Shown: piece by piece, positions 37,639-39,345 of the stretch
How positions within the stretch are numbered: the stretch's first letter is position 1
Layout of the letters: the number at the start of each line of letters is the position of its first letter
Source: a phage
Sequence record: PZ379598.1
Direction: 5' to 3' (one strand)
Length of the DNA stretch: 40,118 nucleotides
Position numbers and translations under genes: made by a program
Notes under the pieces: generated by a model
What the model was told of the DNA's origin: nothing
Seen by the model: the letters and a program-made list of their open reading frames with translations, nothing else
The model's database searches: none

Positions 37639-37965
37639 TTACTTGCATATCAGCGGGTTAGCGTGGAGATGACTGAAGTCACCATGAGTCGTGTGCTTGA
37701 TGGTTGACCGTTGGTCTATCGCCTTCCATCCTGAGACTAAAAGTTTACCATCGTCAGTGATTGGTCGTCCACCATACACCAGACACATTAGTTCGGACTT
37801 ATGGCCCTCAGCCCGTAGTCTTGCTTGCAGTACCCGGTCCCGCTCCTGCTGTTGACGTGCGGAGTGACTTGACGTTCCGTGACGATACCCGGTAGCCAGT
37901 AGGCTTAACATTTGCATGTCTGCGTCCATAGAGTGTACCAGATTAATCCCGTATGACTTGTTCAT
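37639..37965 (-). CDS. Hypothetical early protein (108 aa)
   Basis: ORF whose ATG overlaps the upstream stop (TAATG); contains His-rich segments (HGTSSH, HTTHGDFSHLH); no confident family assignment. Confidence 0.6.
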   Translation of the reverse strand: MNKSYGINLVHSMDADMQMLSLLATGYRHGTSSHSARQQQERDRVLQARLRAEGHKSELMCLVYGGRPITDDGKLLVSGWKAIDQRSTIKHTTHGDFSHLHANPLICK

Positions 37966-38168
37966 TACAGTTTGCTCCCAAGTGTTGCTATATCCCAGAC
38001 GTTCGCTAAGTTACGCATGAATCGTCCGTTAGGTTGACGTACAGTCCAGCTACCCAGACGTACATATTTGAATTTGTAGACTTTACGCGCTTTGTTGATG
38101 TCTCTCACCAGCACGTAGGCGATAAGTCCATAGCCTATGGCTATCAATAGTGCGATACTCATAGTCAT
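37965..38168 (-). CDS. Small membrane protein (67 aa), early region
   Basis: MTMSIALLIAIGYGLIAYVLV... with one predicted transmembrane helix; its ATG overlaps the stop of the upstream 34-aa ORF (ATGA). The track reports a 124-aa ORF (37965..38339) starting at a GTG with no ribosome-binding site. Confidence 0.55.
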   Translation of the reverse strand: MTMSIALLIAIGYGLIAYVLVRDINKARKVYKFKYVRLGSWTVRQPNGRFMRNLANVWDIATLGSKL

Positions 38169-38269
38169 AAGCCCCATAACAGTTGAGTAAGGACCGGTAG
38201 TTTGCAGACTAGAGTAAACATTCCCCACACTACGAAGCCTGAGATAGTCCAGATGATTGCAGTGCTCAT
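38165..38269 (-). CDS. Micro membrane protein (34 aa), early region
   Basis: Hand-found ORF MSTAIIWTISGFVVWGMFTLVCKLPVLTQLLWGL with AGGAG 6 nt upstream of the ATG; hydrophobic throughout; in the +1 frame relative to the 124-aa track ORF. Confidence 0.5.
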   Translation of the reverse strand: MSTAIIWTISGFVVWGMFTLVCKLPVLTQLLWGL

Positions 38270-38401
38270 AGTTAACTCCTATCAATGTAAGTGGTAATCT
38301 TTGAGGCCACCTATCAGTCGATGACCTCTCGTCTATCACTCAGTACCATCACGTCAGTGTTATGGTCAAGCTATGATTTGGTTCTCTCCTGTTTATTTAG
38401 G

Positions 38402-38629: not shown

Positions 38630-38841
38630 ATCTTCCCTCTCAGTTGTTAATGACTATCAGTCAGGCCACCAGCATTGATGACCTGTAGTCTGTCACTTAG
38701 CGTGTAAACTGTCGTGTATACGCTTGCGTCTCCTGTAGACCACTTTCAAGAGACGCATAGCCCAATCGTGGTCTAACTGCCCGGTCTTGACCATAAGCCG
38801 GGCGTTAGTGACGTGGTGCTGGCAGAGGCCATAAGTTACCA

Positions 38842-39345
38842 TCACTCGCAGTCCTCAGCAGCAGGGTCAAACACTACGTTATCATTGATGTCTTCCACCT
38901 GAAGGTGGCGACCTATCACATAGTTGACCTTGGCACATGCAGTAGCGACCTCAAGAGCTACAGCTTGCACAATTATTGCGCCTGTTTTAGCGTCAACTAC
39001 CCAATATTCATCCTCTTCGTCTGCCTCTTCATCCTCAAACCAGACTACATCCAAGCTATTAGACACGTCGTTATAAAGTGCCTCATAGATGCGAGCTTGT
39101 AGGATACGCGTTACGTCCTTGGTTTCAGGTATCATCCCAGAGTCTTCGAACTCGTTGTCTATACCATCAGCAGCCATCACCGTAAAAATCTCGTGGTAAT
39201 AGTGTGGAACCTGACCGTCTACGACCTCATGCAGCGCATCGCTGTAGTCGTCATCTTGAGTCAGGTGGTCGTACTGAATACGCTCGATAAATGCCTCAAC
39301 GGTTGCAGCCAGCAGCTCATAGTATGCGTTAGCATTACGTTCCAT
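38842..39345 (-). CDS. ocr: Ocr-like DNA-mimic anti-restriction protein (T7 gp0.3-like) with C-terminal extension
   Basis: 167 aa; residues 1-110 align with recalled T7 Ocr (NIRYDD..D.DD..DA.H...[35 protein letters not shown]); very acidic; about 50 extra C-terminal residues. Confidence 0.85.

Follow-up and report, generated by a model that had tools for sequence, protein, structure and literature searches.

In the early region of phage T7, a pair of small genes, 0.5 and 0.6, follows ocr and gene 0.4 and precedes the RNA polymerase gene. The first product, gp0.5 (47 aa, GRAVY 1.38), is hydrophobic, and the stop codon of its gene overlaps the ATG of gene 0.6 as ATGA. T7 gp0.6 is an MreB inhibitor, and a kinase gene, 0.7, also belongs to this region. 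The RNase III site R0.5 is reported to lie in the spacer between genes 0.4 and 0.5, at nt 1468 (Dunn and Studier, 1983). R0.5 is stated to be an efficient, working RNase III site in T7 (PMC3643576). Gene 0.4 encodes an FtsZ inhibitor (PMC5624674), and T7 mutants lacking genes 0.5 to 0.7 form plaques (PMC10511110). For phages SH4 and SH5, a published table lists a 55/56-aa ORF followed by a 65/66-aa 'gp0.6' (PMC4925675). A literature search brought up no functional studies of T7 gp0.5, of the 0.6-like protein of Kayfunavirus, or of the 34-aa peptide described below.

We analysed a phage sequence of 40,118 nt (PZ379598.1, hereafter the window), which belongs to Kayfunavirus (K1F-like, T7 family) and is transcribed from the minus strand as far as its genes are concerned. 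Around the locus of interest, 1.1 kb of sequence is 99.7% identical to Escherichia phage LM33_P1 and finds matches in over 200 records of Kayfunavirus and other T7-family phages. The early gene order, all on the minus strand, begins with ocr (39345-38842), followed by a 50-aa ORF (38845-38693), a Cys-rich 75-aa ORF (38629-38402, phrog_32657), the locus itself, a 108-aa gene (37639..37965, phrog_7066) and, 3' of the latter, the RNA polymerase gene (37541-34860). A scan for promoters and terminators returned nothing relevant in the region. For comparison, we collected 22 loci from IMG/VR and 14 from GenBank, all from related phages. At the locus, an ORF of 124 aa (38339..37965, minus strand) opens at a GTG (38339-38337), and an initial sequence-only reading had proposed that this call hides two translationally coupled genes for small membrane proteins. 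That there are two genes is borne out by selection, stop codons, SD sequence and family length; their coupling is suggested by the arrangement of the genes.

The organization that we consider probable is a hairpin resembling R0.5, one strong Shine-Dalgarno (SD) sequence and three genes in tight succession, which encode 34, 67 (or 65) and 108 aa, with the 124-aa ORF accidental. The first of these genes (38165..38269, minus strand), which occupies what we call the gene 0.5 slot, runs from an ATG at 38269 to a TGA at 38167-38165 in the +1 frame relative to the 124-aa frame (70 nt offset) and has the sequence MSTAIIWTISGFVVWGMFTLVCKLPVLTQLLWGL. Its ATG follows AGGAG (38276..38280, minus strand) after the 6-nt spacer TTAACT, exactly as the sequence-only reading had described. 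This AGGAG forms an anti-SD duplex of -6.8 kcal/mol, compared with a median of -7.3 for the 31 long ORFs of the window and with -3.2 at the GTG of the 124-aa ORF; the 34/67 pair has no other good ribosome-binding site. The encoded peptide, correctly recognised at the outset as hydrophobic, has a GRAVY of 1.46, a single charged residue (K23) and a best 19-residue hydropathy window of 1.94 (residues 4-22), and would be a single-helix membrane micro-protein. The frame is intact and starts with ATG in nine further distinct diverged sequences with 47-97% identity, which span Kayfunavirus, Enterobacter phages and Citrobacter phage CR8, a member of another genus (Caroctavirus). Every intact homologue is exactly 34 codons long, and the motif (S/G/C)KLPVxTQ is kept. 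Minimum substitutions at codon positions 1, 2 and 3 number 17, 8 and 38, respectively, and the pooled pN/pS is 0.31, as against 1.68 for the 124-aa frame read over the same DNA; the value for the third frame is 0.93. The conserved, intact frame and these substitution patterns indicate that the 34-codon frame is more than a chance occurrence. Judged by these alignments, it is under purifying selection and the upstream part of the 124-aa frame is not. The peptide has no PHROG match at E <= 0.1, and its CR8 homologue none at E <= 1.

The slot between the hairpin and the 67-aa gene, which we refer to as 0.6-like, is variable in content. Among the collected loci it holds a 29-aa ORF, a 34-aa ORF or a 53-55-aa ORF (K1F, SH4), and in two loci (L013, L014) a 55-aa and a 29-aa ORF in tandem. 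Locus L022 has a 45-aa homologue of T7 gp0.5 (phrog_16572, E 0.001; BLASTP 38% identity) placed before a 0.6-like gene of the window's family. In three loci (L018, L020, L021) the slot is empty and the SD sequence directly serves the 0.6-like gene. In a phage database, 93 records carry the 29-aa type, 51 the 55-aa type and 38 the 34-aa type. All of the occupants are hydrophobic, TAGGAG or AGGTG is conserved before whichever ORF fills the slot, and the stop codon of the occupant either overlaps the next start or lies no more than 4 nt from it (ATGA, TGATG, TAATG or a spacer of 2-4 nt). The sequence AACTATG is common to the starts of occupants and to several junctions. In loci L004-L025, ACTATG is found where the slot ORF begins (TTAACTATGA, 38262-38275 in the window) and again where the 0.6-like gene begins (TGACTATGAG, 38158-38168), and two of the empty-slot loci (L018, L020) have a single GAACTATGGG. 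Such a short direct repeat could provide microhomology for the insertion, stacking and loss of small hydrophobic ORFs. It is quite improbable, in our estimation, that the slot is a dedicated exchange site for unrelated hydrophobic micro-proteins serving as host- or defence-specific partners or modulators of an invariant 0.6-like anchor; were it so, the slot would be a small, unrecognised and variable counter-defence module, directed for example against membrane-associated defence or superinfection.

The same variability bears on an alternative in which only the 65-67-aa gene is functional and the 34-aa ORF is a leader that delivers ribosomes to it, the sequence of the peptide being irrelevant. 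This alternative, which we regard as unlikely, accommodates a slot that is vacant in some phages and filled in others by unrelated ORFs of 29, 45 or 55 aa, the replacement of the 34-aa ATG by ATT in phage 6925, a frameshift in the 34-aa gene of 02_vB_Eclo_IJM, and the absence of the 34-aa peptide from the PHROG families and of its gene from RefSeq LM33_P1. A leader valued only for its translation would, however, hardly account for the low pN/pS and strong third-position bias of the 34-aa frame, for a length held at exactly 34 codons down to 47% identity, or for the conservation of both KLPVxTQ and the hydrophobic helix. Nor would a pure leader ORF need to be hydrophobic, as all of the alternative occupants are, and CR44b keeps the 34-aa ORF intact in a place where a tblastn search gave no 0.6-like gene for it to lead into. 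The ATT, the frameshift and the three empty slots imply either that the 34-aa gene is dispensable or that they are sequencing errors. We retain two genes for small membrane proteins, arranged for translational coupling, as the reading supported by the sequence comparisons, in which the 124-aa call is wrong.

A single 124-aa protein initiated at GTG 38339 is very hard to reconcile with the data. The frame is indeed open for 124 codons in the window and its closest relatives, and is annotated as a CDS in phage U8 (QOI58462.1). A 49-aa profile, phrog_36394, matches its residues 1-27, which are translated from the R0.5-like hairpin; in the simplest view this family arose from hairpin DNA read as protein, and its members are probably mis-called ORFs that lie over a conserved RNA element. 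By anti-SD duplex energy, the 17 nt upstream of the GTG (CACUGACGUGAUGGUAC) contain no SD sequence: the pairing of only -3.2 kcal/mol is matched or beaten by 47% of all positions in the window, in agreement with the initial remark that this GTG lacks a ribosome-binding site. The N-terminal 56-57 codons (38170..38339, minus strand) overlap the hairpin, the SD sequence and the 34-aa gene, and are non-coding in the 124-aa frame. The stretch of 57 residues that only the 124-aa model contains lacks hydrophobic character (GRAVY -0.39), and its homologues are confined to near-identical phages. Across the comparison set, internal stops break the frame in five loci (L019, L030, L031, L032, L035) and a stop occurs at the position of the GTG in four (L029, L030, L033, L034); in 14 of the first 26 sequences compared, a stop closes the frame 0-4 codons upstream of the 0.6-like gene. 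The pN/pS of 1.68 and the length of the family members (64-67 aa) likewise argue against the long protein. The 124-aa ORF would then be an accident of the present lineage, in which, by chance, neither the hairpin nor the out-of-frame 34-aa gene has a stop in that frame. A comparable call is found in the CR44b record (locus L027, NC_023576, 1333-1551), where a 72-aa 'gene 0.41' is annotated in the frame equivalent to the 124-aa frame, its end overlapping gene 0.42 as ATGA; what speaks against the 124-aa call probably disqualifies this CDS as well.

The GTG also lies within the lower stem of a conserved 58-nt stem-loop (38285..38342, minus strand), which aligns with the T7 spacer between genes 0.4 and 0.5 and with the corresponding sequence of 20 relatives. 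The element folds as a stem, an internal loop and a second stem (-19.8 kcal/mol, z -3.37); the T7 spacer has the same fold architecture (z -3.53), and the two share CTGAGTGATAGAC...GGCC...GATTAYCACTT. The hairpin precedes the slot in all relatives where it was found, and in a consensus structure of 22 sequences 13 pairs are kept, mostly via GU/GC changes and with one compensatory pair. Alignable sequence, lower stem, internal loop and upper stem, the hallmarks of a T7-type R0.5 site, are all present, and no Rfam family matches the hairpin. By alignment to T7, RNase III would be expected to cut near 38300/38299; this predicted cut lies downstream of the GTG, which it would remove from the message, leaving a processed mRNA from which the 124-aa protein could not be made. 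A second hairpin, CAGGTCATCAATGCTGGTGGCCTG (38640-38700, minus strand; -22.4 kcal/mol, z -2.06), is located between the gp0.4-like gene and the 75-aa ORF, with an upper stem similar to that of the R0.5-like one. Many relatives lack the 75-aa gene, which hence looks like an inserted module, with a similar hairpin on each side.

The second gene of the pair (37965..38168, minus strand) starts at an ATG at 38168-38166 in the 124-aa frame and encodes 67 aa. The overlap of this ATG with the TGA of the 34-aa gene (ATGA, 38168-38165), recognised in the sequence-only reading, was confirmed. A second in-frame ATG at 38162, 2 nt past the TGA, would give a protein of 65 aa. Most homologue N-termini align at this codon (M60 of the 124-aa frame) and some at M58, with an extra MT; either ATG may serve as the start. 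Anti-SD pairing at the two codons (-4.3 and -4.7 kcal/mol, respectively) is weaker than the -6.8 kcal/mol at the 34-aa ATG. That the downstream gene starts instead at GTG 38228 (87 aa) or ATG 38177 (70 aa), overlapping the 34-aa gene and uncoupled from it, is scarcely credible: 87- and 70-aa versions are present in databases (P0146, QZI78448.1), as are several 85-88-aa calls among the homologues, but both codons lack an SD sequence (-2.5 and -2.4 kcal/mol), M55 is not conserved even in the closest loci of the 34-aa type (L in L033, L034, L029 and L030), the upstream extension lies in the frame with the pN/pS of 1.68, and most family members start at the transmembrane (TM) helix.

The 67-aa protein matches phrog_2385 over its full length (E 1.7e-32, residues 2-66 against profile positions 5-69 of 70), and shares with the family its length, an N-terminal TM helix and a C-terminal motif, which reads KARKVYxFxYVxLGRWTVRQPNGRF..NLANVWDIATLGSKL in the alignments. 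We found 117 homologue clusters, most of them of 64-67 aa. The 65-67-aa protein is conserved in nearly all of the collected loci, and 225 records of the phage database contain a 0.6-like protein. An exhaustive HMM search added only about 10 true distant relatives (66-78 aa), which keep the N-terminal TM helix followed by RD..KA..YK..WTVR..NGRF..WD.A; two further candidates, P0119 and P0127, were rejected as repeat-protein false positives. One hydrophobic segment is present, at residues 3-21 (best hydropathy window 2.35), consistent with the initial description of a single-pass membrane protein, and is followed by a basic tail (11 K+R versus 2 D+E in the protein). The protein would be anchored in the inner membrane by its N-terminal helix, and the conserved basic C-terminal domain of about 45 aa is probably cytoplasmic according to the positive-inside rule. 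An AF2 model of moderate confidence (pLDDT 72.7) comprises a helix (2-30), a beta-hairpin (34-45) and a second helix (48-66), and a Foldseek search of this model against BFVD gave no match below E 1. Searches of Pfam, NCBIfam and PDB sequences returned nothing meaningful for either the 34-aa or the 67-aa peptide; sub-threshold matches to Ninjurin and geobacillin-26 were driven by hydrophobic stretches and were set aside. A 66-aa protein on a 38.7-kb phage contig (P0115) is a natural chimera of a gp0.4-like N-terminal half (VTYGLCKHHVTNARIMVKTGQL...) and a 0.6-like C-terminal half (RWTVRQPNGRF...GSKL), implying a deletion that joined the two genes with loss of hairpin, slot and TM helix.

The stop codon of the 67-aa gene in turn overlaps the ATG of the 108-aa gene by 1 nt (TAATG), so that the latter would be the third member of the coupled chain; it has an SD sequence of its own (GGGAG, -6.5 kcal/mol). 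The 108-aa ORF has no match in Pfam or NCBIfam, and its annotated length in relatives ranges from 86 to 130 aa. In this K1F-like phage of the T7 family, an early mRNA segment would begin in the region. Ribosomes would load at AGGAG, translate the 34-aa hydrophobic peptide, terminate at the TGA that overlaps, or lies 2 nt before, the next ATG, and re-initiate on the 67/65-aa gene, which itself has only a weak SD sequence; the same termination and re-initiation would take place at the TAATG junction with the 108-aa gene. Translational coupling is suggested by the gene arrangement, namely the ATGA junction, the weaker SD pairing downstream than upstream of it, and the maintenance of the junction across the different types of slot occupant. 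Both small products would insert into the inner membrane and, by analogy with other T7 class I genes, would act early and be non-essential. The comparisons establish the gene boundaries, the selection acting on each frame, the family membership and the conservation of the hairpin; RNase III cleavage, membrane topology and function are inferred, and our best guess at the function, again by analogy with class I genes, is an early, non-essential role in host takeover or exclusion at the inner membrane.

The two-gene model is already represented in GenBank, and ours is a correct, useful but ordinary re-annotation. Genes of 34 and 67 aa are annotated in PQ390404, MW345254 and OQ680138, and the 34-aa CDS also in PQ122694 and as gene 0.705 of CR8, with QZI78447.1 as a further protein entry. 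Phage vB_EcoP-101136BS1 is annotated with 34 and 70 aa, and Providencia phage EPr2 with 29 and 65 aa under the name 'putative transmembrane domain containing protein'. RefSeq LM33_P1 omits the 34-aa gene, and in the public records of near-identical phages the stretch is called as 124, 87, 70, 67 or 65 aa, with or without it. The main value of the analysis is better annotation. LM33_P1-like phages are candidates for phage therapy, for which it helps to have all of their early membrane-active peptides listed. Small early genes that are non-essential and sit in a mosaic region are nothing unusual in the T7 family. Only the variable slot of hydrophobic micro-proteins is mildly new, and it offers a modest lead for studies of early host takeover and of phage small proteins.

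Compared with described systems, the likeness to T7 gp0.4 that the sequence-only reading had drawn does not hold. T7 gp0.4 is also a small early protein encoded in the same genome region as the 34/67 pair, but it is not hydrophobic (GRAVY -0.03), has no hydrophobic segment and is encoded upstream of the hairpin rather than after it. The gp0.4 homologue of the window is a different gene, the 50-aa ORF at 38693-38845 (phrog_5058, E 4e-25, with a cross-hit to phrog_7202, the family of T7 gp0.4; BLASTP 37% identity, E 9e-5), and neither the 34-aa nor the 67-aa protein matches phrog_7202 or phrog_5058. This 50-aa ORF probably starts at the ATG at 38842, sharing 1 nt with the ocr stop (TGATG); T7 genes 0.3 and 0.4 overlap to the same extent. 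The proposed link to cell division is likewise unsupported, as nothing found here ties the 34-aa or the 67-aa peptide to that process.

Closer likenesses are found in phages with annotated 0.6-type genes. K1F gene 0.6, EcoDS1 gp0.6 and CR8 0.71 are homologues of the 67-aa protein annotated as hypothetical; the '0.6' DNA of K1F encodes a protein 92% identical to residues 19-67, and CR8 0.71 is a 64-aa homologue with a TMHMM helix annotated at residues 4-22. In CR8, the 34-aa homologue (0.705) is 47% identical to that of the window, whereas K1F, SH4 and SH5 have a 55-aa slot occupant in its place. T7 gp0.6 is not homologous to these proteins: it has no TM segment and belongs to a different family, phrog_8393 (T7 gp0.6A, E 3e-35), whereas the 67-aa protein carries a TM anchor and matches phrog_2385 only. 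The label 'gene 0.6' in K1F therefore reflects position only. Similarly, T7 gp0.5 (phrog_16572) has no detectable homology to the 34-aa peptide, and the window lacks gene 0.7, the place of the kinase being taken by the 108-aa protein. The correspondence with T7 is one of position and architecture. Like genes 0.5 and 0.6, the 34/67 pair lies in the early region, after ocr and a gp0.4-like gene and before the RNA polymerase gene, and its first member, like gene 0.5, is the first ORF after the hairpin, is hydrophobic and shorter than 60 aa, and overlaps the next gene as ATGA. The positional and architectural counterpart of the 34/67 pair is the T7 gene 0.5/0.6 pair.
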